Shown here: positions 4,855 through 49,149 of the stretch, piece by piece | How positions within the stretch are numbered: position 1 is the first letter of the stretch | Layout: the number at the start of each line of letters is the position of its first letter | From: a virus | Lineage: Duplodnaviria > Caudoviricetes | Length of the DNA stretch: 57,960 nucleotides | Virus record (IMG/VR): IMGVR_UViG_3300037156_000027 | Location: 1 to 57,960 of that record | Reading direction: 5' to 3' (one strand) | Notes under the pieces: model-generated | The model's database searches: none | What the model was told of the DNA's origin: nothing | What the model saw: only the letters and a program-made list of their open reading frames with translations | Translations under genes and position numbers: made by a program

Positions 4855-6186
4855 TTACGATCTTGCAAAAGGTATGTAATCTTCTGGGTTCCCTTTGCCT
4901 CTGAACCCATTTCCTCCGGCATTCGCCTTCAACGCCGTATTAAAGCTTTTATCATTAACACTTTCGGCAAAAAAACGCCCAGTTCCGCATTGATATTTAA
5001 GAAACCATTGTTCTGGCGCATCAGGCAAATCAACCTGAATAAGGGTGCCAATATGAGGTTGGTCTTTATCGATAATCTTAGGGTGTAGGCTTGGATGTTC
5101 AAGAACATTCGCCCAGCCCAAGAGTTCGCAAGCGGCGCGACGTTGCTCAACATTTTCCCATTTTAAAGCAATTTCTGGCGTTAACGCCTTCCGGTTTTCA
5201 ATCCACCATGCTGGTATTCTAACTCCGTGGAACGAATATAGCGCCGATCCATCGCGCCATTTGCAGAATGGGCCTGTTTCGCAATGGGGACGGTTCTGAT
5301 CGTCTTTTAGCAAAAGCATAGGTCGGTCACTAATCATGCAGAATTTCTCGTGCATGATTCGTGGGCCGCTGTGTTCAGATAGTTTCTCGAAAGCATCAAA
5401 CTTTGAATAGTCCAAAGGAAGTTTTGCAACATACCGGAAGAATGTGAGAAACGCAGACCATCCAGACCACTGATTTCCGCCTTGATACATTTTCCAGTAG
5501 CATTTAACGGCACATTCTAGCCCGAACTTTCCTACACCCAAAGTTTTGGAAAGGTTGACCATGCTAGAAATATCAAGGTTAAACCAATTTTTATTTGCCG
5601 TGGCAGCATCCGTGGCAGCATACATGGCAGCACGCGTGGCATCACGCGTGGCAGCATCCGTGGCAGCACGCGTGGCAGCATGCGTGGCATCATCCGTGGC
5701 AGCATACATGGCATCACGCGTGGCAGCATACGTGGCAGCACGCGTGGCAGCACGCGTGGCAGCACGCGTGGCATCATCCGTGGCAGCACGCGTGGCAGCA
5801 TCCGTGGCAGCATCCGTGGCAGCACGCGTGGCATCATCCGTGGCAGCATCCGTGGCATCATCCGTGGCATCATCCGTGGCAGCACGCGTGGCAGCATCCG
5901 TGGCAGCACGCGTGGCATCACTTTTGCCATTTTTCCTAAAATACCATATGGCACTCGCGAAACCAGATGCAAACCGCAGAACAAACGGCGATGGCACAAA
6001 CATAATCCGGTGGTCCGGGGGTGGCTCCAAATTTGCAGAGCGATACATGGATTTTACGGCATCACGACAAATAGCTTTTTCTTCATCATCCATTGGCTTG
6101 GTGGACATGGCATTGTCAATCCATTTATCGCGCCACGATGGGAATTGCGCTTTGTGTTCTTCGGTGAGGGTGTATTTCTTAGCCAT
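4855..6186 (-). CDS. DUF6745-like protein with central tetrapeptide repeat array
   Basis: C-terminal RPHCETGP..WRDG..LY.FHGVRIP and NVEQRR motifs; central ATxA/ATxD repeats. Confidence 0.8.
   Translation of the reverse strand: MAKKYTLTEEHKAQFPSWRDKWIDNAMSTKPMDDEEKAICRDAVKSMYRSANLEPPPDHRIMFVPSPFVLRFASGFASAIWYFRKNGKSDATRAATDAATRAATDDATDDATDAATDDATRAATDAATDAATRAATDDATRAATRAATRAATYAATRDAMYAATDDATHAATRAATDAATRDATRAAMYAATDAATANKNWFNLDISSMVNLSKTLGVGKFGLECAVKCYWKMYQGGNQWSGWSAFLTFFRYVAKLPLDYSKFDAFEKLSEHSGPRIMHEKFCMISDRPMLLLKDDQNRPHCETGPFCKWRDGSALYSFHGVRIPAWWIENRKALTPEIALKWENVEQRRAACELLGWANVLEHPSLHPKIIDKDQPHIGTLIQVDLPDAPEQWFLKYQCGTGRFFAESVNDKSFNTALKANAGGNGFRGKGNPEDYIPFARS
5599..5919 (-). repeat. 12-bp coding tandem repeat, 26 full units
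   Basis: Unit GCC-A[CT]G-(CGT/GAT/TAT/CAT)-G[CA]T. Confidence 0.97.
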
Positions 6187-6550: not shown

Positions 6551-7027
6551 TTAAATGACTAACTCCACCCGGCTTCTGAAACTGGCGAAAAGTTCTTCGG
6601 CCTTGATGGTGTATGCCTTCGCTGCATCGTCTTCCGATGGAAAGAAGCCAAGACTATATTTCTTTCCATCTTTATAGATTTGTGCCTTCCATTTATTGCT
6701 CTGCTTGTCCCAGAATACGCCTTTATATTTGCTGGTTGAATTAATTTGAGACTTTTTATTCATTTGATTCTGGGCTGTCGTGACAGATCTTAAATTCAAC
6801 CGTCTATTATTAAGCGTATCTCTGTCTATATGGTCTGTTTCTATGCCATCCGGTGTCTTATTGATAAGGCGGTGCATGTAGGTGGGCGCATCTCTTTTTT
6901 TAGCGCCATTTCTTTTTCCGCTACTGAGCGCATAGCCTTTATGAAAATACCATTTGCGTTTTTGTATTAACTCAAAATCTGCGTCATCGATGACGGCGAA
7001 TTTGCTCTGTGTTAATTCTATACGCAT
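6551..7027 (-). CDS. HNH-AP2 homing endonuclease
   Basis: MHRLI...TDHIDRDTLNNRRLNLR (HNH) and SKYKGV.W..KWKAQI...LG.F..EDDAAKAY (AP2). Confidence 0.92.
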   Translation of the reverse strand: MRIELTQSKFAVIDDADFELIQKRKWYFHKGYALSSGKRNGAKKRDAPTYMHRLINKTPDGIETDHIDRDTLNNRRLNLRSVTTAQNQMNKKSQINSTSKYKGVFWDKQSNKWKAQIYKDGKKYSLGFFPSEDDAAKAYTIKAEELFASFRSRVELVI

Positions 7028-7464
7028 AGTTCTACCCTAACAACGCGGCTAGACAGGCGACAGTTGCCCTTAAGGTTCCACTCGTCGTCACCGTCCGCGA
7101 AGTCAACGTTGTACACGACGTCCGAGTTGTCGCGACGCTCCGTGCAAGACCAGTACCAGTGGGCGAGGACGGAGCCGCTAGCGGTTCTGTATGAGGCGTC
7201 CTTATTATCGTACATCTTCAGCAACAGATCCTTCGGCGGAATAAACCAGCCTCCGTTGTATGTGCCATTCTCGAACGCTGCCATAAGTTCTGCTTCGTTC
7301 TTGAAATCGCATCCGTCAAAGCCATGCCAGTTTTTCAATGACGCGACTTTCTTGACGGCGTCATTATAGGTCAACAGTTCGCCCAAATCTTCCGGTGCAG
7401 GAATAGCCTCAAGAAGTTTGACTTCTGGTTGACGAGATTCTTTGAGTTTGAATGCGTAGGTCAT
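7018..7464 (-). CDS. DUF1566/Lcl-like (C-type lectin fold) protein
   Basis: GGWFIPPKDLL, YWSCTE, YNVDFADG, C-terminal SRVVR. Confidence 0.7.
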   Translation of the reverse strand: MTYAFKLKESRQPEVKLLEAIPAPEDLGELLTYNDAVKKVASLKNWHGFDGCDFKNEAELMAAFENGTYNGGWFIPPKDLLLKMYDNKDASYRTASGSVLAHWYWSCTERRDNSDVVYNVDFADGDDEWNLKGNCRLSSRVVRVELCV

Positions 7465-7570: not shown

Positions 7571-8071
7571 ATGAACGCAGACAAAATAATTTCTATCTTG
7601 AAAAAAGAATGTGAAAAATCAGGCAGCCAAAAGGCGTGGGCAAAGGACAATGGTTTGTCGCAAGCCTATGTATGTGATGTTCTGCAAGGCAAACGCGGAA
7701 TAGGGGAATCAATCGCTAAAGCTCTTGGATACGAGCAGATCGTAAGTTATCGCCGATTTGGTGGTAGAAAAACTTATGGCGAAGGGAATACGGATATGAC
7801 GCCACATCGCGTCCAGCGTAAGCGTGTGAAGGGCTGGAAGATGCCTCCCAATACGGTCTATGTCGGGCGTCCTACGGCATATGGCAACCCTTTTTCTGTC
7901 GGGCGTGTGGGTGGTGCGGCAAAGGCTGTGGCTGACTACCGCGAATGGATAAAAACGAATTACGATCAGTCACAGATCGAGCAACTGCGCGGTAGAAATC
8001 TTGCTTGCTGGTGTGCGCTCGATCAACCCTGTCATGCCGATGTTTTATTGGAGGTAGCCAATGCCGAATGA
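7571..8071 (+). CDS. Cro/XRE-type HTH fused to DUF4326-like domain
   Basis: SQKAWAKDNGLSQAYVCDVLQGKR (HTH); YVGRPT.YGNPF...LRGRNLACWC...CHADVL (DUF4326); internal ATG at 7797. Confidence 0.8.
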   Translation: MNADKIISILKKECEKSGSQKAWAKDNGLSQAYVCDVLQGKRGIGESIAKALGYEQIVSYRRFGGRKTYGEGNTDMTPHRVQRKRVKGWKMPPNTVYVGRPTAYGNPFSVGRVGGAAKAVADYREWIKTNYDQSQIEQLRGRNLACWCALDQPCHADVLLEVANAE

Positions 8072-8276
8072 ATCACCAACGACTCTATTCGACATCATCA
8101 AGCGCGGCATTCTCGATCAAGATGTGCAGACTGTTGCGGATGCACTTACGGCAGTAAAGTATCTTCAGGATGCTTTCCAGAGAATAGATGCCATCTGCTC
8201 TCTTAATTCTGAGGACTACCGAGAAGGTTTCTCAGACATTGGAAATCTTGCAGGAGGCATTCTCAATGGAATATAA
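8061..8276 (+). CDS. Motif-led hypothetical protein (MPNESPTT)
   Basis: GGAGG RBS; motif CACCAACGAC. Confidence 0.75.
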   Translation: MPNESPTTLFDIIKRGILDQDVQTVADALTAVKYLQDAFQRIDAICSLNSEDYREGFSDIGNLAGGILNGI

Positions 8277-8493
8277 AATAACAATTATTCTGGCCGCGCT
8301 ATTGCTCTTATCAGGCTGCAAAGTCTGTGACCACGAGACCAATCAAGACAAGCGACATGCTTATTTTGAGGAGTGCATTAAAATTTCCGGCGCACAACCG
8401 GAACACAATCATGAAGATAATAACGGCGATCTCGTGAAGGCTTGCGATGATGCCGCCTATTATCAAGCACAGGAGAAAGTCTGCCATGAGTGA
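8266..8493 (+). CDS. Putative lipoprotein (no motif)
   Basis: GGAGG RBS; MEYKITIILAALLLLSGC lipobox. Confidence 0.7.
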   Translation: MEYKITIILAALLLLSGCKVCDHETNQDKRHAYFEECIKISGAQPEHNHEDNNGDLVKACDDAAYYQAQEKVCHE

Positions 8494-8791
8494 ATCTAAA
8501 ACGACGCCATGGCAGTTGATTGAGACTGCTCCACATAACAAGAAAATAATCGTCTACTATAAAAACGGGTGTGACAAGGGAAGAACCGTTTTCGCTGTGT
8601 ATATTGATAAGTTCACCGAGGAAGATACCGGCGAGTGCGACATGGATACGGACTACAGCGAAGAAAAAGATTGTTACTATTGGCCGGAAGGTTGGTACGA
8701 GCAGATAGACAATTGGGATGACTACTCAGCCGTTCGATTTCACTATAAACCAACTCATTGGATGGAGTGCCCGGAATGTCCCAAACGGTAA
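8486..8791 (+). CDS. Motif-led DUF551-like protein (MSESKTT)
   Basis: WQLIETAP...PTHWMECP; AGGAG RBS. Confidence 0.75.
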   Translation: MSESKTTPWQLIETAPHNKKIIVYYKNGCDKGRTVFAVYIDKFTEEDTGECDMDTDYSEEKDCYYWPEGWYEQIDNWDDYSAVRFHYKPTHWMECPECPKR

Positions 8792-8967
8792 CGACACCCA
8801 CATGGGAAATTCTAGCCAGAGCAGACGCCCCAATAAGGCTATCCGAGGCAGCATCTACCGCGCAGAAGGTTTTCAATCTGAACCGGACATCTGACCGCGC
8901 CGCAGAGATAGCATTCAAGACGCTAGAGCAAGCGCAGAAACTTTTAGTGGAGGCGGAGAATGGATAA
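8776..8967 (+). CDS. Motif-led hypothetical protein (MSQTVTT)
   Basis: GGAG RBS; motif CGGTAACGAC. Confidence 0.7.
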   Translation: MSQTVTTPTWEILARADAPIRLSEAASTAQKVFNLNRTSDRAAEIAFKTLEQAQKLLVEAENG

Positions 8968-9142
8968 ATCACCAACGACGCCGGAAGACTGCGGTGCGCA
9001 TTTGTTTCACCCTATAACGCAGTTTTGTAGGAACTGCGGAATGGCAAGAACAGGGGCTTTAGAAAATTATCTGGCTTTCATGCAAAGATATACAGACAGA
9101 CTTCAACGCCTTGAAGCTAAAGTATTCGGAGAAGCACCATGA
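8960..9142 (+). CDS. Motif-led protein with Cys/His cluster (MDKSPTT)
   Basis: CxxH...CxxC; motif present. Confidence 0.7.
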   Translation: MDKSPTTPEDCGAHLFHPITQFCRNCGMARTGALENYLAFMQRYTDRLQRLEAKVFGEAP

Positions 9143-9161
9143 CTGAAACGACGAGCAAGCC

Positions 9162-9398
9162 ATGAGAGCAACGGTTTTTACGGAGGATGAAGCCAAAGAA
9201 CGCGCCTGTTGCGGTTCTGGCAATCGTCCTGCCAATAACGGCCCCTGCATAGGCTCGAAGTGCATGGCTTGGGAATGGGTGATCGAGGCAGCTATGCCTG
9301 AAGGCGAGAAGAATGTTTACGACATAACGCCGCGAAACATGATTAAACCTATCAAGGTCGAACGTGGTTATTGCGGATTAAGCAAAGGAGATAATTAA
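9162..9398 (+). CDS. Cys-containing hypothetical protein, preceded by 8-codon motif mini-ORF 9139..9165
   Basis: CIGSKCMAW...GYCGL; ATGA coupling. Confidence 0.7.
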   Translation: MRATVFTEDEAKERACCGSGNRPANNGPCIGSKCMAWEWVIEAAMPEGEKNVYDITPRNMIKPIKVERGYCGLSKGDN

Positions 9399-9742
9399 TG
9401 GATAAAGATTCAGTAACCACTCTTGAGGAAGAGAATTTGGACTTGCTAAAGATGGTTGATGCATTCGGGAATTTTGTTCGTGCTTATGCCGATGGAGCAG
9501 ATCGGCTGCTAAGTGAGCACACAAAAATCATGCAAAAAATAGCGGAGATGGGGGAAGCGAGAAACTTGCTGATCGATAATCCACAAACGACGCCCGACCT
9601 GATTAAAGCGATCCGCACAGAACTTTATGACATCGGCTATGGCTCTCCTATGCGTGGGGATTATCAAATTGGCTTCAATGATGCTCTGCAAAGAATGGAT
9701 TGGGTTTTAGAACGTATGGAGAAACAAAATGAAACAGCCTGA
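9398..9742 (+). CDS. Motif-led protein with a second internal in-frame motif (MDKDSVTT...IDNPQTT)
   Basis: Motifs at 9411 and 9582. Confidence 0.75.
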   Translation: MDKDSVTTLEEENLDLLKMVDAFGNFVRAYADGADRLLSEHTKIMQKIAEMGEARNLLIDNPQTTPDLIKAIRTELYDIGYGSPMRGDYQIGFNDALQRMDWVLERMEKQNETA

Positions 9743-9923
9743 ATCCCAAACGACGAAACGCATTTCCTATTCACTTTTTGCGGCACTTCTTATTCCGCTT
9801 CTGGCATGGTGTGCTGGATATGACTTTGACAAGCGCGGAGCGGTTGCGTGTTTCATCTGCGTCTATTCAATCCTCCTATTCCTTTTTGTCTGGTTTGCAC
9901 CTTGGTGGAAATATGACCGATAA
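9729..9923 (+). CDS. Motif-led two-TM membrane protein (MKQPESQTT)
   Basis: Two hydrophobic helices. Confidence 0.7.
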   Translation: MKQPESQTTKRISYSLFAALLIPLLAWCAGYDFDKRGAVACFICVYSILLFLFVWFAPWWKYDR

Positions 9924-10053
9924 TCCTCAAACCACAATCATCCAACGCCTCCTGACGTTTCTATTCCCGTACAAGCGTCCGTCTATCATCGGACATATCC
10001 TTGTCCGCAATGGTTCGGTTACGGGATGTCCGGGGAGTGCGCTTAGATCATGA
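9913..10053 (+). CDS. Motif-led small protein (MTDNPQTT)
   Basis: GGTGG RBS; overlaps upstream stop. Confidence 0.6.
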   Translation: MTDNPQTTIIQRLLTFLFPYKRPSIIGHILVRNGSVTGCPGSALRS

Positions 10054-10247
10054 CATTCCGCGCATCACGCCATTGTTCGCCAAGCAAATTCATGTCGCCA
10101 AAAGGAATGCCGCAACGCAAGTCCGAGCTACTCGCATTGCATGCTGAGGGGAAGACGACATCGGAAGCAGCAGAGTTGCTGGGGATGTCTCTTAGCGCGG
10201 TTCGGCAAGCATGCGTTACTTATGGGGTTAAGTTGCGGAGGGGGTAG
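10050..10247 (+). CDS. HTH DNA-binding protein
   Basis: GKTTSEAAELLGMSLSAVRQ. Confidence 0.7.
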   Translation: MTFRASRHCSPSKFMSPKGMPQRKSELLALHAEGKTTSEAAELLGMSLSAVRQACVTYGVKLRRG

Positions 10248-10253
10248 GTGGTT

Positions 10254-10499
10254 TTAGATTCTTGCGGCATTGGCTGCATCCTTTCCCTCGACTGCTAGAA
10301 CATAAGTTCTATATGCCTCAACAACGCGAATGGCTTTATATTTGTCATCCATCAAGCAGCGGCATCCTGCATTCGTGTGCATTCCTATCGGGGTCTGAAT
10401 GCGACAGCCGCCATTTGAACAACCACCAATCTCTTTCAGGCGATTTTGGAGTGCTTGGAGTGGTTCAGATAAAGTCGTTACTGATTCATTCTTCGGCAT
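10254..10499 (-). CDS. Motif-led Cys-rich protein (MPKNESVTT)
   Basis: GGCSNGGC...GMHTNAGCRC. Confidence 0.75.
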   Translation of the reverse strand: MPKNESVTTLSEPLQALQNRLKEIGGCSNGGCRIQTPIGMHTNAGCRCLMDDKYKAIRVVEAYRTYVLAVEGKDAANAARI

Positions 10500-10734
10500 G
10501 GGGAACCTCCGGTAATGGATGCCAATGAGAGATCGGATAAATGTCTTTGTAATCAGTTCCCCAATCTCCCTGATTTTCGATCACACGCGAACCGTCGCAC
10601 ACAGGAACAAAACTACCCCCACGATATTCGGCTGTGCTGATCTCTGTATAGCGCGACCAAACCAAAATGGTTGTGCCGTCCTTTGGCGCAGTCTCAATGT
10701 CCCGCCAGAGAGTCGTTACTGATTGTTCGGCCAT
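10486..10734 (-). CDS. Motif-led DUF551-like protein (MAEQSVTT)
   Basis: WRDIETAPKDGTTILVW...SHWHPLPEVP. Confidence 0.8.
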   Translation of the reverse strand: MAEQSVTTLWRDIETAPKDGTTILVWSRYTEISTAEYRGGSFVPVCDGSRVIENQGDWGTDYKDIYPISHWHPLPEVPHAEE

Positions 10735-10883
10735 AATGCCTCCGATGCTATTTGGTGAGCTGTTTTACCGCTGCGAAAACACTTGCGGCCTTCCCGATCT
10801 CCAATTTCGACTATCTGCCCCAAGGCTTCGTATAGCCTTTGGTGGTCTAAACGGAGACGTTCACATTCTTCATTTCTTTCCAT
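10716..10883 (-). CDS. Hypothetical protein (no motif at start)
   Basis: AAGGAG RBS before ATG 10883 (MERNEEC...). Confidence 0.55.
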   Translation of the reverse strand: MERNEECERLRLDHQRLYEALGQIVEIGDREGRKCFRSGKTAHQIASEALWPNNQ

Positions 10884-11013
10884 AACGGCTCCTTGAATAA
10901 TATATCGGACGACATTCAATGCAGAGAGGCGGCCCTGAGTCTTTGCCGCATTCAACACACCGATGGGCTGAATTGTTGTTTGCGGGCTTCGTGGTTGTCG
11001 GTTGGTCAACCAT
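10870..11013 (-). CDS. Motif-led zinc-finger miniprotein (47 aa, not in ORF track; MVDQPTTT)
   Basis: CVECG...LCIEC. Confidence 0.65.
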   Translation of the reverse strand: MVDQPTTTKPANNNSAHRCVECGKDSGPPLCIECRPIYYSRSRYGKK

Positions 11014-11173
11014 TCGTTGCACCTTTCAGAGCCAATTCTGCGGCGCTATAAGCTGCGCTCCAACGCTTGCCGATCTGCCCGGAACAAGAATGCGATTTCC
11101 CTGATAAGCGGTATTCTGGAACTATCGCGTCCGCGATCTCGCAAGGTGTTTTCGTCGTTTTAGATTCAGTCAT
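11006..11173 (-). CDS. Motif-led hypothetical protein (55 aa, not in ORF track; MTESKTT)
   Basis: Overlap-coupled at both ends. Confidence 0.7.
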   Translation of the reverse strand: MTESKTTKTPCEIADAIVPEYRLSGKSHSCSGQIGKRWSAAYSAAELALKGATNG

Positions 11174-11348
11174 AGGGCTGCACCCCCTTAAAAATTGCGT
11201 TGTATGATCTGCCGCCAGCGTCGATGTAGTCTTTGGGTTTTTTCCATTGCTTCTTTTTGCGGCTAATGACTTTCTTGTCGTTTTGATCTGTATAGCTGTC
11301 CGTCTTTGCGGCGCATAAGCGACCCTTTAAATTCGTGGTTTTAGTCAT
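11166..11348 (-). CDS. Motif-led basic protein (MTKTT)
   Basis: AGGAGG RBS. Confidence 0.7.
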   Translation of the reverse strand: MTKTTNLKGRLCAAKTDSYTDQNDKKVISRKKKQWKKPKDYIDAGGRSYNAIFKGVQPYD

Positions 11349-11514
11349 GCAGCTTTCCTCCTAAATAGCACCAAGCGTTGAGCAGAACATTCTGCGGAAT
11401 TTTGGTGTCGAAATACATGCCCATGATAAGAGCCTCGCGCACTTCGTCTTGCGTCATTAACTTGCGCTGCAAGACGCGCTCTTTTATCGTTAATTCCGTC
11501 GTTTGTGTTGTCAT
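11341..11514 (-). CDS. Motif-led hypothetical protein (MTTQTT)
   Basis: GGAG RBS; ATGA coupling. Confidence 0.7.
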   Translation of the reverse strand: MTTQTTELTIKERVLQRKLMTQDEVREALIMGMYFDTKIPQNVLLNAWCYLGGKLHD

Positions 11515-11738
11515 GTGTGTCTCCAATGCACGGGATGTTCAGGATTTTTCAAATGCTCTTTAAGGCCGCTCGCCAAATTACCAGCGACCGCACGAATGCC
11601 GCCCAAACAACCAGCCGATAATTCTGGGTGATCTTTCAAAAGCACGTCGGCATCCTCGATGATGTCTTCGGCTAGACCAATGTAGCCTTGCAACCATTCA
11701 AGGTTGATCGTTTTCGTCGTTACTGTTTTGTCGGTCAT
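11511..11738 (-). CDS. Motif-led hypothetical protein (MTDKTVTT)
   Basis: ATGA coupling. Confidence 0.7.
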   Translation of the reverse strand: MTDKTVTTKTINLEWLQGYIGLAEDIIEDADVLLKDHPELSAGCLGGIRAVAGNLASGLKEHLKNPEHPVHWRHT

Positions 11739-11965
11739 CCTGTTTTCTCCGGTAAATCGGTTGGCATCCAATGGGTGATTGCGTGATCGAAGAAGGCCGA
11801 CCAATGCTGCCACACATCGCCATCCCAATAAGCGAGAGATGCTTCTTGTTTGCGCCCCTTTATTGTTGAGGTGACAACATAGGTTCCGTTCTTTGGTGGC
11901 GGTACAAGCTGCCATGCAACCGGGGTATTTACCTCCTGTAGAGTGGTTGCTGATTTATCAATCAT
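11735..11965 (-). CDS. Motif-led DUF551-like protein (MIDKSATT)
   Basis: WQLVPPPKNG...ITHWMPTDLP. Confidence 0.75.
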   Translation of the reverse strand: MIDKSATTLQEVNTPVAWQLVPPPKNGTYVVTSTIKGRKQEASLAYWDGDVWQHWSAFFDHAITHWMPTDLPEKTG

Positions 11966-12143
11966 GGGCGTTCTCCTCACAGTAACGAGCCATATCCTCT
12001 GCTAATCCTAAACGGCATTCATACGGCATGTCGTGAACGATCTTTGAGAACGAGGCCGGGGTATCTGGCGAAAGGTTAGCAAACAAAATTGCCTTACATC
12101 TCAATTCGCTGAATTTGAGAGTCGTTTGTGGATTATCGGTCAT
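11958..12143 (-). CDS. Motif-led hypothetical protein (MTDNPQTT)
   Basis: Overlap-coupled. Confidence 0.7.
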   Translation of the reverse strand: MTDNPQTTLKFSELRCKAILFANLSPDTPASFSKIVHDMPYECRLGLAEDMARYCEENAHD

Positions 12144-12483
12144 CGTCTGTCGTCCCTTCTTCAATGTGTCGCAACACTTCAGGAATTGAGCCTTCGGATA
12201 CGTTCATCTCCTGCAAATGAGCAATAATGCAGTTTTGCAGTCGTTCGATTTTCAGGCTCATATCGTTCATTTTATGGGCTGCCTTAAGTGCTGAAAGGAT
12301 TATGGGTATTTGCTTGTATCCTGTCCCACATACCAATAACTCAGCGTAAGTAGATTTAGCGAGTACGCTCAGAGCTTTTTCTGTCGTTTGTGTCGGAGAT
12401 GCTGCGCCGCACTTTGTGCAGATAACGCCATTGTTGGCATATCCGCATTGGCCGCACAGCCATTCTTTGGTGGTTTGTGTCAT
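12133..12483 (-). CDS. Motif-led protein with N-terminal RanBP2-like zinc ribbon bracketed by two motifs
   Basis: MTQTTKEWLCGQCGYANNGVICTKCGAASPTQTT. Confidence 0.75.
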   Translation of the reverse strand: MTQTTKEWLCGQCGYANNGVICTKCGAASPTQTTEKALSVLAKSTYAELLVCGTGYKQIPIILSALKAAHKMNDMSLKIERLQNCIIAHLQEMNVSEGSIPEVLRHIEEGTTDDDR

Positions 12484-12755
12484 TTTGTTATCACTCCCTT
12501 CGCCCATTCATCCAATTTGCTTTCGAGAGCCTGAATTGTAGCCCACTTTCCCGACGGAAAAAGATCGTCGTTGTCGGGCATCTGCCGCATGAGGAAAAAC
12601 ATTTTTGCCCAATCTTCGAGCGGCATATTATCGGCATCAGCAAGATCATACGTTCTAACAATCTCTTCGATGCCGCGCCGAGTTAACGGAATGAATTCGC
12701 GTAGGCTAATAAAGTCGCGGCGATAGGTGGTCGTTGGTGATTCAGGCTTGGACAT
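12480..12755 (-). CDS. Motif-led hypothetical protein (MSKPESPTT)
   Basis: GGAGG RBS. Confidence 0.75.
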   Translation of the reverse strand: MSKPESPTTTYRRDFISLREFIPLTRRGIEEIVRTYDLADADNMPLEDWAKMFFLMRQMPDNDDLFPSGKWATIQALESKLDEWAKGVITK

Positions 12756-12924
12756 TTTTCAGCCTCCAAAAGTCTATGAACTTGTCTGTCATCTCCCGCG
12801 CCTTTTCCTCGCCGAACAACCCAACGTAGTAGAAATAGGCGTTCACGCGCAGGATGCTTTCCTCGAATGGTCTATCCATTCTGGGCTTCGGAAAGCAGAT
12901 GACATTTGTCGTTTCAGTTGTCAT
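12742..12924 (-). CDS. Motif-led hypothetical protein (MTTETT)
   Basis: GGAGG RBS; ATGA coupling. Confidence 0.7.
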   Translation of the reverse strand: MTTETTNVICFPKPRMDRPFEESILRVNAYFYYVGLFGEEKAREMTDKFIDFWRLKNVQA

Positions 12925-13172
12925 AAATTGCCCTCCATATATTCCTTGTCGTGAACGATAGCGTTCGATGCAATGGCCTCGACGCCGTACCAATTGGTCA
13001 TGTCCCAAAGAGCGTCACAAACATTTTTAAGGGATTGTTTCTTTGCAGGATCGGTTTCCTTATCACATAGATGATTGAGTTCGTAGTGAGCATGGCGAAT
13101 ATCGCCTTGATCCAGCACCTTGACCATTACAGTCAACCTTTCAGTTTCGTAGGTGGTTTTTGAATCAGTCAT
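12921..13172 (-). CDS. Motif-led hypothetical protein (MTDSKTT)
   Basis: Overlap-coupled. Confidence 0.75.
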   Translation of the reverse strand: MTDSKTTYETERLTVMVKVLDQGDIRHAHYELNHLCDKETDPAKKQSLKNVCDALWDMTNWYGVEAIASNAIVHDKEYMEGNL

Positions 13173-13356
13173 TTGGAATAAATCCTTTCAAGTTATTGTC
13201 GATCCTGTACTTGGCGTGTTTTACGGATAGCCTCATTATCTTTTCTTCTCTGTCTGTGAAATTGCTGGTGTCCAAGTCTCCACAAACATCGTCGTGAACC
13301 CAAATTTGCAGTTCTGCCAAAATTTCATCTGGCGTGGTTATTGGTTTATCCTGCAT
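13165..13356 (-). CDS. Motif-led hypothetical protein (MQDKPITT)
   Basis: Overlap-coupled. Confidence 0.7.
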   Translation of the reverse strand: MQDKPITTPDEILAELQIWVHDDVCGDLDTSNFTDREEKIMRLSVKHAKYRIDNNLKGFIPND

Positions 13357-13552
13357 TTAGTTTCCTTTCTTCCTCATCCGCAAACTTCTTTGCCTGTTCG
13401 ATAATGCCGAGCCACATAATCCTGCGATAGTCTGCATCCTTGAAAACATACTCAATCTCTCCCTTCACGGGAGCGAGAAGGTTTATCGCCCTATCGCGGA
13501 TTAGCATCGCTATCTGACCGGGCGATTTCGTGGTTTGTGAATCTTTAGTCAT
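13346..13552 (-). CDS. Motif-led hypothetical protein (MTKDSQTT)
   Basis: Overlap-coupled. Confidence 0.7.
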   Translation of the reverse strand: MTKDSQTTKSPGQIAMLIRDRAINLLAPVKGEIEYVFKDADYRRIMWLGIIEQAKKFADEEERKLNAG

Positions 13553-13754
13553 CGAAAGCCATCCTTCCTACGCATAAGGATGCCCATGCCATTTGTTGTC
13601 TTGTGCATTCAAAGTGTGCCGTCTCACAAGCACCGTCATCGTGAAATGTCATTATGATGACGTTCTTAACGGTTGGATCAGCCATTGCCTGAGAGAGCAA
13701 AGACGAAACGGATTTGTGTTTACCTCCAAGGGCGACAACTTTGCTTTCATTCAT
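13545..13754 (-). CDS. Hypothetical protein (MNESKVV; motif absent)
   Basis: ATGA coupling. Confidence 0.7.
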   Translation of the reverse strand: MNESKVVALGGKHKSVSSLLSQAMADPTVKNVIIMTFHDDGACETAHFECTRQQMAWASLCVGRMAFDD

Positions 13755-13951
13755 AAGATGCCCCTTTCTATCGCCAGTTTCTCAGACATCATAATTTGGT
13801 CAGGCTCTCCAAACCCAATCTTCACAATCTTAAATTCAGAGCGGTCAAACCATGCGCGTCCAATATCAGCTTCGATCAGAGCCTTATTAGGAGCATCGTC
13901 TATTATTTTACAATTAAGCAACAAGTCCGTGGTTTGTGGATTAGTATTCAA
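13751..13951 (-). CDS. Motif-led hypothetical protein, TTG start (MNTNPQTT)
   Basis: GAGGTG RBS before TTG at 13951. Confidence 0.65.
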   Translation of the reverse strand: MNTNPQTTDLLLNCKIIDDAPNKALIEADIGRAWFDRSEFKIVKIGFGEPDQIMMSEKLAIERGIL

Positions 13952-14186
13952 GACACACCTCAAATTGTTTGCTGCATTTAGGGCACAACACTTCAACATT
14001 TTTTGTCCTATCGGTGTTATGCTCGGCAAGATCAAATCTATGGTCTTCCCAGAAGTCATCGGCATCCAAAAGGTCCACATATGCTTCACAGTGCGGACAT
14101 TCACACCAAAGCTCTATCGTCCAAGATGCAAATACTCTTTCAGCCTCCTTAGGCGTCTCTTCGGTCGTGGTTACTGATTCAGCCAT
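13941..14186 (-). CDS. Motif-led zinc-binding protein (MAESVTT)
   Basis: CPHC...CPKC. Confidence 0.75.
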   Translation of the reverse strand: MAESVTTTEETPKEAERVFASWTIELWCECPHCEAYVDLLDADDFWEDHRFDLAEHNTDRTKNVEVLCPKCSKQFEVCLEY

Positions 14187-14446
14187 ATCACCACCCCCAA
14201 CAACCCAAATATAAACTCCGCGCACAGGATGAATCCGATGCCAGATAGGAAGCCGGATTCTCGGCCCTCGGTGTATCCTTTCTCATGTCCGTGCTTGTGT
14301 CCCAATATATACCCATCATCATGAGCATATTGACGGACTTTAACGTGGTGCTTGTGTAACTCAGCTAAAGCCTTCGCCTGATCCTCGTCGCTCACGTACC
14401 CATCGGGGACTTTGCAGAACGCGCCCTTATGTCTGGCCTTGCTCAT
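14171..14446 (-). CDS. Hypothetical protein with GxxxG repeats and C-terminal TM
   Basis: GYILGHKHGHEKGYTEG; hydrophobic tail. Confidence 0.65.
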   Translation of the reverse strand: MSKARHKGAFCKVPDGYVSDEDQAKALAELHKHHVKVRQYAHDDGYILGHKHGHEKGYTEGRESGFLSGIGFILCAEFIFGLLGVVIWLNQ

Positions 14447-17946: not shown

Positions 17947-18573
17947 TCATACTGCTGGCGCGTCATCTTCTGCATCAGAACATCCTTCTGTTGGAGATTC
18001 GGCAGATTTATGACCGTCAGCTATTCCCGCAATCTCTTTTAGTTCAGCGAGATTAAGCTGCTTCTGTTGCGCAGGAGTTAGCTTGCCCCAATAGGTTTTT
18101 AGCGGCTCGGTGCCTTTTGCGGCTTCCAGTTTGGCGGCTTCGATCAAGGCTGTGCTGGGGGTGTGAACGACAACCAAAGTCAGCGGCTTCACAGTAAATA
18201 TCTTGCGAACGGTTTTTGATTCCGTGAGAGATAATTTCTTCTCGCCGTCTATATGCGACATATGAGAGATTCGGATGCCCCCTACCTTCTTGCCCCCGAA
18301 TATCACATCCTCATCGCCGTACAGCGTCAGGCTCTTGCCAACATAGTTTACGGAGGCCAGACCCCACAATCTCGCCAGAACCCTAGACATAGTTTTGCAT
18401 GGCTTCCAAGGCTTACCGTTATCGCCCTCAAAAAAGATAGATACCTTCTGCTGAGGATCATTATTCTTGATGACAACCTTGGTAATCGTAATGGTTTTCG
18501 ATATTCCACAGGCGATGTCATCATAATTCAACTGGTCTGACTTCGGCTCTATTGCTACGGACATATCGTTCAT
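17947..18573 (-). CDS. Probable ssDNA-binding/annealing protein paired with exonuclease
   Basis: PKSDQLNYDD...KPWKPCKTM...V.FGGKKVGGIRISHMSHID; acidic C-terminal tail; adjacent to YqaJ gene. Confidence 0.6.
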   Translation of the reverse strand: MNDMSVAIEPKSDQLNYDDIACGISKTITITKVVIKNNDPQQKVSIFFEGDNGKPWKPCKTMSRVLARLWGLASVNYVGKSLTLYGDEDVIFGGKKVGGIRISHMSHIDGEKKLSLTESKTVRKIFTVKPLTLVVVHTPSTALIEAAKLEAAKGTEPLKTYWGKLTPAQQKQLNLAELKEIAGIADGHKSAESPTEGCSDAEDDAPAV

Positions 18574-19247
18574 ATTATGTCTCCTTCAATCCTGCGTTCG
18601 GTTGGATGTAGTCGCAAGGTTTTGTCTGCGATTCGTTGCCGATAAATCTCAAAGTTCTCGGCAAGTTTTTTCTCAAATATCGTTGCCGCCGCGACTATCG
18701 CATCTTGCACAACGGGGTCAGGCAACACGCGCAACGTCAACATAGGCAAACCACCGGAATATGAGATAAAGTCCCACCATTTCCGCTCAGACACTAATAG
18801 GCATGTCTGAACCTGAATAACAAAGTCATCCGGCATCTTCTGTTCGACGATAGTTTGCACCTGAAATTTTTGTGCGCGTGATTTCACCTCAAGACCACCA
18901 GCCTCTGCGATTAGGGAGTCTGGCGAACATCCGAGTGTGAACCCGAATTTATCGTTCGTTATGAACCCAACATCCTGAAGCGGTGCGTATTTCTCATTGT
19001 AGATGATTTTGGCTTCCAATTCGTCATCATGACCGCGCAACATCGCATCGCTGACATATTGCGGCTCTACATATTTAGAAATACGCTGCGATAGCAACTC
19101 CCACATATGGCTGCGCGATTTGTCATTATCGGCGACTTTCAGGGTTGGGGTGATGATTAGCTTCATTTGGGAAGCTGTCAACAATCCGGCTCTGGCAGTA
19201 ATCCACGCATCACTGCCCTGATCAAAATTCTCATGATAGGTTATCAT
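18570..19247 (-). CDS. YqaJ/lambda-type exonuclease
   Basis: QGSDAW..ARAGLLTAS, GCSPDSL, LEVKS, QVQ..L.VSERKWWDFISY. Confidence 0.92.
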   Translation of the reverse strand: MITYHENFDQGSDAWITARAGLLTASQMKLIITPTLKVADNDKSRSHMWELLSQRISKYVEPQYVSDAMLRGHDDELEAKIIYNEKYAPLQDVGFITNDKFGFTLGCSPDSLIAEAGGLEVKSRAQKFQVQTIVEQKMPDDFVIQVQTCLLVSERKWWDFISYSGGLPMLTLRVLPDPVVQDAIVAAATIFEKKLAENFEIYRQRIADKTLRLHPTERRIEGDII

Positions 19248-23410: not shown

Positions 23411-23583
23411 TTTTCTTCCATCAATCTTTCTTGATGCTCCATATATCGCCTCTCGGCACAATTCTCGCACAGATATTCAGGCGGAACGCTGAACGGTGCC
23501 ATTGTGGTTATGTCGTACACGTCTGGCGTGGTTGCGCCGCAGTTTTCGCATTCGCGGGGTTTATCGTTTGCCATATCTGTCAT
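23407..23583 (-). CDS. Zinc-finger miniprotein (58 aa, not in ORF track)
   Basis: CENCG...LCENC; ATGA overlaps at both ends. Confidence 0.65.
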   Translation of the reverse strand: MTDMANDKPRECENCGATTPDVYDITTMAPFSVPPEYLCENCAERRYMEHQERLMEEK

Positions 23584-23753
23584 GGCAATTCCTTCAATTT
23601 ATCGAAGTGATAAAGCGGCGTGAATTTCTGATCGTTGTATTCTGCGTCATGTCCTGTTTCATATATTATCAGACCAGCGGTATCCTTTCCGACAATCCAT
23701 ACTTTCTTGCCGTTCACCAATGCCCAACGTGGCGTGGTTTCAGTTTGTGCCAT
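23580..23753 (-). CDS. Motif-led protein (57 aa, not in ORF track; MAQTETT)
   Basis: AAGGAG RBS; motif CTGAAACCAC. Confidence 0.7.
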   Translation of the reverse strand: MAQTETTPRWALVNGKKVWIVGKDTAGLIIYETGHDAEYNDQKFTPLYHFDKLKELP

Positions 23754-23913
23754 GCTTTAGCTCCTTAGATATTTCCTGATTACGGTTCTGCAATTCTTCG
23801 CAGGACATTACACTTGTAAATGGCGTCTTCCATCGGCCACAATTCACACAGCTAAGTTGCGTCCCATTGGCTCTAGTTATGCGCCATACGTGAGTGGTTG
23901 GTGATTCAGTCAT
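23740..23913 (-). CDS. Motif-led protein (MTESPTT)
   Basis: GGAGGT RBS; motif CACCAACCAC; CVNCG. Confidence 0.7.
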   Translation of the reverse strand: MTESPTTHVWRITRANGTQLSCVNCGRWKTPFTSVMSCEELQNRNQEISKELKHGTN

Positions 23914-34017: not shown

Positions 34018-34761
34018 ATGACTGACATGCCGTATCTGATGATAGCGACGCCGTGCAAGGATGGGACGGTCGATCTAAATTATGCTCTATCGTTGACGGC
34101 GACATGTCAGGTTCTGACGCACGCTGGCATTAAATATCAGATGGCGCACGTCTGCACATCGAGCATAGATAATGCGCGGAATATTCTTGCGACGCTGTTT
34201 GTGAAGAGTGAGTGTACGCACCTTCTGTTTGTTGATGATGACATGGCGTGGGCATCTGATTTGCCTTTGAGAATGCTGAATGAGAATGTGGACATTGTCG
34301 GCGTTCCATACAGGAAGAAGAAAGCCGAGCCCGAATTTACTATATCCCACTCGCGAGAAGTCGCTTCGATAGAGGGTCGCCCATGGATGATGCTGGCTGA
34401 CGGCCTTGGCATGGGCATGACGCTAATCGCGCGACGGGTTTTCGATGCTCTGGTCGATGAGGTTCCGTCCTACCATTGCTACAGTTCAGAGCTGAACAGA
34501 CCACAGTCCATGTTCTTCCGGCACCAGCTAGTGTCCGATAAAGATGGGATGATGAAATACGAGTCGGAGGATTTCCACTTTTGCCGATTAGCGAAAGCAA
34601 AGGGCTTCGAGATATTCGGGTATATTGATGAGAATGTGCCGCACATAGGGCGCAAGGCATTCTCTGGGGCATATAGTGATTATATCGGGGCAGGGACTGC
34701 CCACGGATTTTCATCTGAACGTGAGCGTCTATTTGCGAATGTGGCGGGAGTTGAGAGTTGA
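34018..34761 (+). CDS. GT-A fold glycosyltransferase-like protein
   Basis: IATP, ARNIL...THLLFVDDDM, GMGMTLIARRVF, ESEDFHFC, HIG. Confidence 0.8.
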   Translation: MTDMPYLMIATPCKDGTVDLNYALSLTATCQVLTHAGIKYQMAHVCTSSIDNARNILATLFVKSECTHLLFVDDDMAWASDLPLRMLNENVDIVGVPYRKKKAEPEFTISHSREVASIEGRPWMMLADGLGMGMTLIARRVFDALVDEVPSYHCYSSELNRPQSMFFRHQLVSDKDGMMKYESEDFHFCRLAKAKGFEIFGYIDENVPHIGRKAFSGAYSDYIGAGTAHGFSSERERLFANVAGVES

Positions 34762-35597
34762 AGATTGCTGTCGCTATACCGTCATATTGGAATCCTGCGG
34801 GGCTAATCGCTGGCGTGAAGAATCTGCATGATCTGGCAGCGCATCCTGAGAATCTCACATTCCGCATTGGCCTAGACTTTGATGATGGGGCCGGGCATGA
34901 GGCGGTTAAACATCTTGGGTTTGCCAAAGTAGAGGTTGTCGATTTCCCTCATGGTATGCCTCATTCTGAATTCTGGAACAAACTTTGTGTCCCTGATGCG
35001 GCAGATTATTATGTTCTTTATAGCGATGATGCCGTTTGCCTGACCCCACATTGGGATGTGGTTCTTGCAGAGACTGCCAACCCAATGCCGTTCTGGAATG
35101 TTGTGAATCAGCCGGGTGGTGCGCTTGCTTGCTTTGTGTCGAATGCTTGGCTAAAGACTTGCGGGTATGCGCTTCCGCCTTATTTCCCGTTCTGGTTTGG
35201 CGACACATGGATCGATGAACTGCGTGCATTTGTAACAGGCCGTCCGTCTGGGATTGTGCCGGAATTGAAGTTATATCTCCCCCAAGGGAAGACAACGGGC
35301 ATGAAGGATTTGGATTACTGGTGGGGGTTCTTCAATGCCACGCGCCCGCTACGAATTCAAAAAGCATGGAAGATATTCAATGGGCTGCCTCTGGCAGAAG
35401 AAAGCTTTATGAGGCGGTGTGCTAAATTGTCAGAACCCATGCGAATGCGTGATGCTTATTATCGTGCAAGAATAACCGATCTTGAGGCTGGCAATACCGA
35501 GCCGGGCGAAGCCAAACTTGAGCGGCATCGCAAATGTCGTGCGCTTGCTGATGCGCTGATGCAAGAGAATGGCTTGGAATTGTGGGGCGATATATGA
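34758..35597 (+). CDS. Second glycosyltransferase-like protein
   Basis: IAVAIPS, GLDFDD, YSDDA....HWD, WFGDTW. Confidence 0.65.
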   Translation: MKIAVAIPSYWNPAGLIAGVKNLHDLAAHPENLTFRIGLDFDDGAGHEAVKHLGFAKVEVVDFPHGMPHSEFWNKLCVPDAADYYVLYSDDAVCLTPHWDVVLAETANPMPFWNVVNQPGGALACFVSNAWLKTCGYALPPYFPFWFGDTWIDELRAFVTGRPSGIVPELKLYLPQGKTTGMKDLDYWWGFFNATRPLRIQKAWKIFNGLPLAEESFMRRCAKLSEPMRMRDAYYRARITDLEAGNTEPGEAKLERHRKCRALADALMQENGLELWGDI

Positions 35598-47806: not shown

Positions 47807-49149
47807 GCGGTGGTGGTCTTGGCGGTGTGCTGGGCGCGACTCTTGGAACGGTTGCTGGGGCAGCTCTCGCACCTGAAACGGGCGGTTTATCTCTTGCGAT
47901 TCCTATGGCTATGGGGGCAGCAGGAGGCGCATTTGGCGGCGGCGTTGGCTCTGCCGTAACGGGGCAAGGAAATCCTTGGTCGTCGGCTCTCAGCGGCGGC
48001 ATAGGCGGAGCGGCAAGCGGTTTGATGAGCGGCGCACTCTCTGGATTGATGGGCGGCGCAGACAGCGCGACATCAGCCGTTGGCGCAGATATGTCTGCGG
48101 GTGCAGGAGTTGATGCTTCTGGGGCTGGCGTACAGGCGGCGACGGGCGTAGATGCAGCGTCGGGCGCATTCCCATCGGGCGGCATGTCATATGCGCCGGG
48201 TTCGTTTCCATCGGGCGGTATGTCCACGCCCGCTGACTTTAGCGGGGCCTCAGGCTTCGGCGGGGCAGTTGCGCCTTCTGCCGATGCTGCCGCGCCATCA
48301 AGCGGCGGCGGTAGTTTAGGTGGCAATCCTTCCGCAACACCAACCCCTTATATGAATGCCAACGGTGCGCCGCTACCTCCTGCCGCAGCCAAGGATTCTG
48401 GTGGACTGAGTTCATATCTCCTACCCGCTGGCCTCGCGCTTGGTGCGGCTGGCGCGTTCATGCCGTCTGGCAGCAATCCGGTCAACACGTCGGCGGCAAC
48501 GGCGGCGCAGAACAACTTTAATCAGCCATTGCCTCAGTACAAATACACCAGCACCCAAGCGCCTCCCAGTGGCAGTTGGTACACTTATGGGCAGCGCCCA
48601 CAAGCCCCGATGATTACCAATACCGTTACACCCTTGAAGCACGGCGGCCTCGCAGGTTATGCGCGTGGCGGCATGGTTCCTGCCCTGCAAATCCCGATGT
48701 CGAAAATGCCTGTTCGCAAATTGGCGGATGGTGGATTGCCAATGAACGCCCCCATGCAGGCTCCCGCGCAGCCAGCGATGCTGCCTCGTCCGGCAGGGAT
48801 GCCTCAACCGCAAATGAAACCGAATCCAGCGCAACAGGCGGCGCAGTTCGCCATCGGTCAGAAGATCGGCGCAGCTGTACGTAAGCACATTCAAGGGAAA
48901 ACGCCCGATGGCATGGTTGCTGGCGGCGGCAAAGGGCAGGATGACGCGATTCCGGCGAAGTTGTCGCAAAACGAATACGTGGTTCCAGCGGATGTCACGT
49001 CGATGCTCGGCGACGGATCATCCAACGCTGGAGGCAAGGCTCTCGATCAAATGGTTCATGCCGTTCGCGCTCATAAAACGAGCAAAGGAGCGGGGTTTCC
49101 GCCAAAGGCTAAGGCTCCGACGGCATACATCAAAGGCAAAAAACCATGA
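47803..49149 (+). CDS. Internal virion/ejection protein 1
   Basis: Gly-zipper N-terminus; YARGG, LADGG; GKGQDDAIPAKLSQNEYVVPADV. Confidence 0.7.
   Translation: MSGGGLGGVLGATLGTVAGAALAPETGGLSLAIPMAMGAAGGAFGGGVGSAVTGQGNPWSSALSGGIGGAASGLMSGALSGLMGGADSATSAVGADMSAGAGVDASGAGVQAATGVDAASGAFPSGGMSYAPGSFPSGGMSTPADFSGASGFGGAVAPSADAAAPSSGGGSLGGNPSATPTPYMNANGAPLPPAAAKDSGGLSSYLLPAGLALGAAGAFMPSGSNPVNTSAATAAQNNFNQPLPQYKYTSTQAPPSGSWYTYGQRPQAPMITNTVTPLKHGGLAGYARGGMVPALQIPMSKMPVRKLADGGLPMNAPMQAPAQPAMLPRPAGMPQPQMKPNPAQQAAQFAIGQKIGAAVRKHIQGKTPDGMVAGGGKGQDDAIPAKLSQNEYVVPADVTSMLGDGSSNAGGKALDQMVHAVRAHKTSKGAGFPPKAKAPTAYIKGKKP

Follow-up and report, generated by a model that had tools for sequence, protein, structure and literature searches.

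A conserved in-frame motif as the probable cassette joint in accessory-gene arrays of a peat phage and its relatives

Phage genomes are mosaic, their joints seldom show conserved sequences, and it is debated how accessory genes are shuffled without destruction. In integrons, the crossover lies within AAC/GTT. Passages of Arbiol et al. (2010, PMC2839356) describe the PeSL mobile regulatory cassettes of T4-type phages as intergenic elements of ~100 bp, made up of an early promoter and a terminator stem-loop. Mosaic joints of lambdoid and other phages can carry short conserved sequences, called boundary or linker sequences, which lie at gene boundaries and, according to the relevant part of PMC3029335, are not findable at most joints; relaxed homologous recombination by phage recombinases is treated in parts of PMC3945230. 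The start-associated sequence (SAS) of Cluster K mycobacteriophages is 13 bp long, contains the ribosome-binding site (RBS) and sits 3–7 bp ahead of the start codon, as stated in Pope et al. (2011, PMC3203893). In integron arrays, as outlined in PMC8876359, some cassettes are fused, and an upstream source can supply translation; short open reading frames (ORFs) in attI1 of class 1 integrons are reported there to provide translation for cassettes that lack an initiation region of their own. Here we analyse a stretch of 57,960 bp (the window, or G000), a complete virus record of IMG/VR (IMGVR_UViG_3300037156_000027) with direct terminal repeats. About thirty small genes of this peat phage carry a 10-base motif, C-NNN-AAC-[GC]-AC, a few codons into the gene. 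We propose that this motif is probably the joint between cassettes in arrays of small accessory genes, and that the cassettes are exchanged by short-homology recombination.

The genes in question start with an ATG, a short variable leader and then the motif. Most of them form two convergent arrays within 8061–14186 of the window. The plus-strand array (8061–10053) has eight leader/joint starts (ATG 8061, 8486, 8776, 8960, 9139, 9398, 9729 and 9913), and the minus-strand array (10248–14186) has eighteen, from ATG 14186 down to a dangling leader at 10270. Two satellite cassettes with the same joint lie at 23580–23913 (minus strand; ATG 23913 and 23753). Within arrays, the cassettes are co-oriented. 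With array genes as baits, we found further IMG/VR phages whose arrays carry such leaders: the complete genomes G001 (51 kb) and G002 (59 kb), G004 (77% complete) and G003, which is nearly identical to G004. A 2.7-kb contig (L059; 2,680 bp) also carries 5–6 leader-bearing genes. The junctions and leaders analysed below number 58, of which 28 come from the window and 30 from G001, G002 and G004.

The original prediction, made from the letters of the window, placed the module boundary at AAC. This was supported when homologous modules standing in different contexts were aligned: identity began and ended at AAC[GC]AC. G000 and G001 have four blastn high-scoring segment pairs in common, 811 bp in total, one of which is 433 bp long at 95% identity. 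Anchored on the motifs, the corresponding module (8078–8505, plus strand; 422 nt from AAC to AAC) was identical at 397 of 416 positions, and its flanks were unrelated, with 8/20 and 12/40 identical positions on the left and 5/20 and 6/40 on the right. It comprises the body of gene 8061–8276, a lipoprotein-like gene (8266–8493) and the start region of gene 8486 (RBS, ATG and leader). The second module, which is shared with G004 (12908–13158, minus strand; 245 nt), was identical at 186 of 239 positions (78%) between likewise unrelated flanks at 20–35% identity, and comprises the body of gene 12921–13172 together with the RBS, ATG and leader of gene 12924. The AAC-to-AAC lengths were equal within each pair (422/422 and 245/245). 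In both pairs the upstream body had kept its stop and the next gene's RBS, ATG and leader, and the next body was unrelated; in the G000/G001 module the RBS, ATG and leader upstream of it differed, length included. The base after AAC differed at 2/2 right-hand ends. In neither of these DNA-level pairs did homology start from the ATG or the RBS.

Taken at the level of the alignments, these results show a cassette of the form [GC]AC-body-stop/RBS/ATG-leader-CNNNAAC, inherited as one piece from AAC to AAC. Because the inherited piece runs from one AAC to the next, each cassette carries the start codon and the first 3–8 codons of whatever gene follows. A gene's own leader derives from its upstream neighbour. 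The same alignments show that cassettes have moved between phages that otherwise share almost no DNA. A cassette of this form explains why upstream stops never pass the AA, why close homologues differ in their leaders, why arrays end in a leader without a gene and why two bodies fuse if the upstream one is in frame 0.

Close homologues on other contigs were available for six families; in 6/6 the residues ahead of Thr-Thr differed and the body was ~80–95% identical. One body was found behind MSESK, MKTE and MTQ, and another behind MSKPESP, MEHKTV and MDNPQ; homologues at ~50% identity, plus one at 76%, were without the leader. Dangling leaders, which no genuine gene follows, were observed at the 3′ ends of three arrays. 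That of the window's minus array consists of a leader and joint (10248–10270, minus strand) with a 19-codon frame running into the convergent gene, that of G002 has 6 codons (MTQTTI-stop), and a third, in G001, has 11 codons and a degenerate AACAAC. Such leaders are expected if the leader belongs to the upstream cassette, and they are otherwise hard to explain. Where a body has its own ATG, the leader survives as a mini-ORF uncoupled from that body. This was seen at 52899 in G002 and at 9139–9165 of the window (plus strand), where the mini-ORF of 8 codons carries the joint and its stop overlaps the ATG of the body at 9162. An upstream body in frame 0 lacks a stop and is fused to the next body; in-frame internal joints of this kind, without stop or ATG, lie at 9582–9591 (plus strand, inside gene 9398–9742) and at 12383–12392 (minus strand, inside gene 12133–12483).

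Contigs from run X2, another peat metagenome, offered further views of rearranged neighbours. In one of them, gene 9729–9923 and the leader of 9913 were joined to the body of gene 11341–11514. Another matched gene 9398–9742 and the next leader through AACGACGAA and then diverged, 6 nt past the AAC at 9749–9751. One contig spanned exactly 9582–9757, and another ended at 10995, which is the AA of a joint; these three ends are all located on joints or next to them. Pieces matching 10730–10955 and 13185–13347 ended off joints; with a depth of ~3 and 83% identity they are uninformative either way.

The position of the stop codons is in agreement with the original prediction, which had claimed that the upstream stop never passes the C of AAC. 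This was true for 58/58 junctions. The last base of the stop lay 1–21 nt before the C, apart from one gapped junction at 66 nt, and the commonest positions relative to the C were −9 (20 junctions), −7 (14) and −10 (6), with −3 in four cases and −1 in three. A value of +99 at G001 46537 was discarded as arising from a spurious 37-codon frame; the real upstream gene ends at −7. The individual stops named for the window were found at the positions given. The TAA of gene 8486–8791 (8789–8791, plus strand) contributes its AA to the AAC of the next gene, and the TAA stops of the gene ending at 10716 (10716–10718) and of gene 14171–14446 (14171–14173), both on the minus strand, fall on the AA of the joints at 10717 and 14172, respectively. 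The stops at 10254–10256, 11341–11343 and 23740–23742 (all minus strand) lie in the N3 spacer. In many cases the stop is built into the leader consensus (ATGA; TGA or TAA ahead of ATC/ATCC).

It had also been cautioned that long gene overlaps are rare anyway, and this caution holds: ~1–4 crossings would be expected in 58 pairs, and the fact that stops never cross is by itself weak evidence. For comparison we used 154 non-array same-strand pairs from the four genomes, with starts picked automatically; 10/154 overlapped by at least 11 nt and 2/154 by more than 23 nt. The geometry of the array junctions is clearly unusual in relation to these ordinary pairs. The 58 junctions comprised 4 gaps, 24 overlaps of 1 or 4 nt and 30 overlaps of 8–19 nt (54/58 overlap the next ATG), as against 85 gaps, 50 overlaps of 1 or 4 nt and 17 overlaps of 5–23 nt among the non-array pairs.

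The motif occurred 40 times in the window vs. 11.5 ± 3.6 times in shuffled sequences (0/100 shuffles reached 40), and 31 of the 40 copies were located within 8074–14176 or 23734–23903. Its frame was constant, xxA-AC[GC]-ACN, read as X-Thr-Thr, 5–20 nt past the start codon. An alignment of the 58 leaders, which were chosen by the motif itself, gave C at position −4 in 57/58 and AAC as well as the final AC in 58/58; the base after AAC was G in 30 and C in 28. The codon preceding Thr-Thr had A as its third base in 58/58 and encoded nine different residues. The first Thr codon was ACG or ACC in 58/58, these two codons together making up 54% of Thr codons elsewhere, and the third base of the second Thr codon was free. 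An N-terminal Thr-Thr with other codons was seen in a single case among the array genes (G001 47198). To judge from these fixed codon choices, the constraint acts on the nucleic acid and not on the peptide. Outside the arrays, the motif was at chance frequency (21 sense and 20 antisense copies vs. ~22 expected per DNA strand). A hint in the window that the motif is avoided there (0 sense copies in structural genes) was not upheld in the other genomes.

Regulation of the Thr-Thr codons linked to tRNA was rejected, no tRNA gene being present in the window. The joint as a methylation site was likewise set aside: methyltransferases near the arrays differ in class (DPPY-type, C5-type), and G000 has none. 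Such genes lie at or near one array end in G001 (50163–50690), G002 (53517–54440), G004 (34274–35074) and L059 (99–605, reverse strand), and cassette 48647–49171 of G001 is itself an NPPF-type methyltransferase; the plus array of G000 is headed by a DUF4326 gene (7571–8071) and not by a methyltransferase. As a separate observation, many leaders contain GANTC in the form GAATC or GATTC (8070–8074, 8492–8496, 11163–11167 and others). GANTC is the class of site methylated by CcrM-type enzymes.

How does this joint compare with the described systems? Like PeSL in the passages of PMC2839356, it is a conserved element whose copies recur among small accessory ORFs of plastic genome regions; exchange at PeSL copies is proposed in those passages to insert, delete or replace ORFs, with expression signals moved along. 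In the arrays, too, copies flank differential ORFs, and exchange between them would explain gain, loss and replacement, as seen in the motif-bounded modules and the differing X2 neighbours. Unlike PeSL, the phage joint measures 10 nt (20–30 nt with RBS and leader) and lies within an ORF, in frame. It brings a translation start and no promoter, and the arrays show neither an excess of promoters or terminators nor a fold. With the linkers it has in common a short shared sequence at module edges as a site of homologous exchange, and a phage-encoded exonuclease/recombinase is present. Unlike the linkers, one and the same motif marks nearly every array gene, and the joint lies 5–20 nt inside the downstream ORF, where the frame is kept and a common Thr-Thr is given to the proteins. 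The SAS, as portrayed in parts of PMC3203893, resembles the joint in being a short asymmetric repeat that accompanies, in one orientation, the start codons of numerous non-structural genes from different families; the upstream stop sometimes lies inside the SAS, and a role in translation was suggested for it. In contrast to the SAS, the phage motif is translated and stands downstream of the ATG in 58/58 leaders. The passages of PMC3203893 on the SAS do not describe it as a recombination boundary. Full-text searches returned PeSLs, boundary sequences, start-associated sequences and integrons, and in them no in-frame, intragenic cassette joint was found described in phages. Conserved junction sequences that mediate modular exchange are already known, and the in-frame intragenic joint would be a new form of them. 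That a new recombination activity lies behind the joint is, in our view, doubtful.

Under the explanation that we prefer, exchange would take place by recombination at the short homology in the joint, which amounts to 6–10 invariant bases and reaches ~27 nt among leaders of one family; leader families have up to 18–27 identical nt in common across different contexts. The phage's own exonuclease-based recombination system would probably assist, and selection would retain in-frame products only. A YqaJ-type recombination exonuclease is encoded in 3/3 complete genomes; in the window it occupies 18570–19247 (minus strand), and its neighbour 17947–18573 is kept beside it in G001. The two are a candidate pair for short-homology recombination. 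The cassettes seem to be without promoters of their own and would probably be translated by coupling along a polycistronic mRNA. The arrays contained 10 promoter-like sites vs. 13.6 ± 3.5 in shuffles, in a scan with a consensus that may not be that of the host, and 8 terminator-like sites vs. 10.4; the absence of an excess fits coupled translation of one long mRNA.

Several points weigh against this explanation. There are two DNA-level module pairs only, among four genomes, and the boundary that they fit, AA|C or AAC|S, is resolved to about ±3 nt and no more finely. The evidence from X2 consists of single contigs at a depth of ~3, and one of these changes within the leader, upstream of the N3 spacer. 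A 27-nt unit of RBS, ATG, leader and joint (9128–9154, plus strand; 26/27 nt identical) occurs in G000 as well as in G002, where the bodies before and after it are unrelated, and its two upstream genes read it in different frames. Module boundaries are thus not exclusively at AAC. In G002, another leader trails the relative of the 8061 cassette and the lipoprotein-like gene is missing, so a module does not always retain its 3′ part. The invariant homology of 6–10 nt is well below the minimum of ~30 bp given for Red-beta recombination in the relevant part of PMC3945230. No protein family was common to all four genomes (blastp, E < 1e-3; G004 being 77% complete). In addition, homology-driven exchange gives no explanation for the invariance of AAC[GC]AC at synonymous positions. 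The mechanism as a whole is proposed from sequence.

The alternative that fares best is a dedicated site-specific system, i.e., a recombinase, a nuclease or a template-switching activity of phage or host that cuts and rejoins at C-NNN-AAC|[GC]AC. It would account for the seven invariant positions, synonymous ones included, and for sharp boundaries where the flanks have just 6–10 nt in common. The variable base after AAC followed the downstream module at both right-hand ends, the same joint is present in phages whose genomes are otherwise unrelated, and the arrays are co-oriented, seemingly promoter-less and end in a dangling joint. Yet neither a tyrosine recombinase (PF00589; 0 matches in G000–G004 at E ≤ 0.01, with 14/14 control genomes matched) nor a serine recombinase (PF00239; 0/5 of the same records, controls matched) was detected, and no protein family was common to the four genomes. 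There was also no attC-like fold at the 28 junctions of the window (−60 to +30; mean minimum free energy z-score 0.08, minimum −1.6), and an inverted partner GT[GC]GTT within 150 nt was present at 1/28 junctions upstream and 1/28 downstream. The chance frequency of the motif on both strands outside the arrays and the breakpoints located elsewhere in the leader speak against such a system as well. We regard it as unlikely. In its fullest form, an activity recognising C-NNN-AAC|[GC]AC would move promoter-less cassettes from one unrelated phage genome to another, perhaps via circular intermediates, in true cassette capture that would amount to an integron at the level of translation with no known integrase. 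A captured body, joined in frame, would be translated immediately from the start codon that its new upstream neighbour supplies. This, too, is improbable.

The integron parallel itself had been drawn in the original prediction. A boundary at AAC was supported to within about ±3 nt; the parallel holds as an analogy only, with no integrase or attC-like structure found. The likeness lies in co-oriented arrays of single-gene cassettes that seem here to be mostly promoter-less, in boundaries that here appear to fall in a short conserved AAC-containing site of which each cassette bears part at each end, in fused cassettes and a translation start that can come from upstream, and in cassettes common to otherwise unrelated replicons. 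Unlike the integron site, which lies behind the gene, the phage site forms part of the coding sequence, in frame, at each gene's 5′ end. The five phage records are without a tyrosine recombinase and the junctions without an attC-like inverted repeat or hairpin, and the arrays are carried by a virulent-looking phage that has terminal repeats. The array system is not an integron, since no tyrosine or serine recombinase and no attC-like hairpin were found.

As a second alternative, the leader and joint may be kept mainly as an RNA element for the start or restart of translation on a polycistronic early mRNA, recombination being a by-product. The joint follows the ATG at a distance of 5–20 nt, in a stretch that is rich in A and preceded by a clear GGAG-type RBS. 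At 54/58 junctions the upstream stop falls within the leader, as would be expected for coupled restart, and mini-ORFs stand ahead of bodies with their own ATG. The arrays have no excess of promoter- or terminator-like sites, and the short ORFs in attI1 of class 1 integrons are reported to supply translation (in the part of PMC8876359 cited above). However, an enhancer need not hold one frame while its distance from the ATG varies by as much as it does here. Dangling leaders behind the last gene have no translation purpose, in-frame internal joints without an ATG exist, and the junctions show no conserved fold. This possibility, which we also hold to be unlikely, is compatible with the module boundaries and bears only on why the motif is kept.

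It is far less probable that the common N-terminus (M-x-E/D-S-x-T-T) is a protein tag for capsid loading, as in the capsid-targeting leaders of T4-type phages, or for export, modification or turnover. Unrelated small proteins do have an N-terminal Thr-Thr in a fixed frame; however, Thr-Thr alone is invariant, and the 3–8 residues before it vary in length and sequence. Unlike a capsid-targeting leader or peptide tag, the element is conserved at the DNA level, with constraint on synonymous positions. Two genes have the leader as a mini-ORF of its own, at array ends it encodes peptides of 6–19 residues, close homologues exchange it freely, and the homologues at ~50% identity and the one at 76% are without it. 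Chance or ordinary tight packing, with the motif as a compositional accident, could appeal to the rarity of overlaps >23 nt outside the arrays too (2/154), and is refuted by the shuffle counts and by module identity that starts and stops on the motif, to which the single frame in 58/58 leaders and the presence of the motif in four further records can be added.

Some array genes deserve separate mention. Gene 13545–13754 (minus strand) begins with MNESK-VV and not with x-TT, and its close homologues differ only before VV (MTK, MSK), which looks as though a variant or decayed joint still served as a boundary. At 10870–11013 and 10716–11009 (minus strand) two overlapping frames are both open; the leader-bearing ORF of 47 codons in the first region encodes a zinc ribbon and overlaps a second frame with a PQTT-like stretch (AACAAC). 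The downstream gene probably begins at ATG 10883. A terminator-like hairpin (10111–10141, minus strand; 12-pair stem) lies immediately behind the minus array, inside the convergent helix-turn-helix gene 10050–10247, and may be the end of the minus-array transcript.

Beyond the arrays, the plus strand of G000 encodes, from ~26 kb onward, the terminase, the portal and structural proteins, and its other genes include primases, the YqaJ-type exonuclease and two HNH genes. A contig of an X2 relative omits 6573–7045 and has 4 other letters instead, so that HNH gene 6551–7027 (minus strand) is missing; this endonuclease gene looks like a mobile insertion of the homing type. The protein encoded at 4855–6186 (minus strand; 443 residues) contains imperfect repeats rich in Ala, Thr, Asp and Arg at about residues 90–200, and its C-terminal part matched a PHROG of unknown function only. 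No close relative of the window was present in the GenBank phage set. Searches of IMG/VR with exact leader patterns gave 4 chance matches without arrays, zero matches or G002 alone, and the primase as bait gave no relatives. Distant homologues of gene 12480–12755 at 26 IMG/VR loci had 0–3 chance leader-like starts each and no array. A metagenome scan with the family of gene 8486–8791 returned one 54% relative in which the leader system was absent, a word-based search with P0022 returned its own cluster only, and family alignment A6 returned two already-known loci. The L059 contig was binned in a metagenome-assembled genome of the Gallionellaceae, the sole host lead and too weak for use.

In these phages the boundaries of exchanged pieces are readable directly from the sequence. 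With an in-frame joint, a cassette arrives translatable and hands a start codon to its neighbour, which would make gene capture almost always productive. If it were true that a dedicated enzyme recognises the joint, this would be a new class of recombination system. The arrays provide a natural and tractable model for the trade of small host-takeover or counter-defence genes across unrelated phage lineages. The joint offers a way to delimit such cassettes in metagenomes, and it points to a possible design principle for modular gene arrays.

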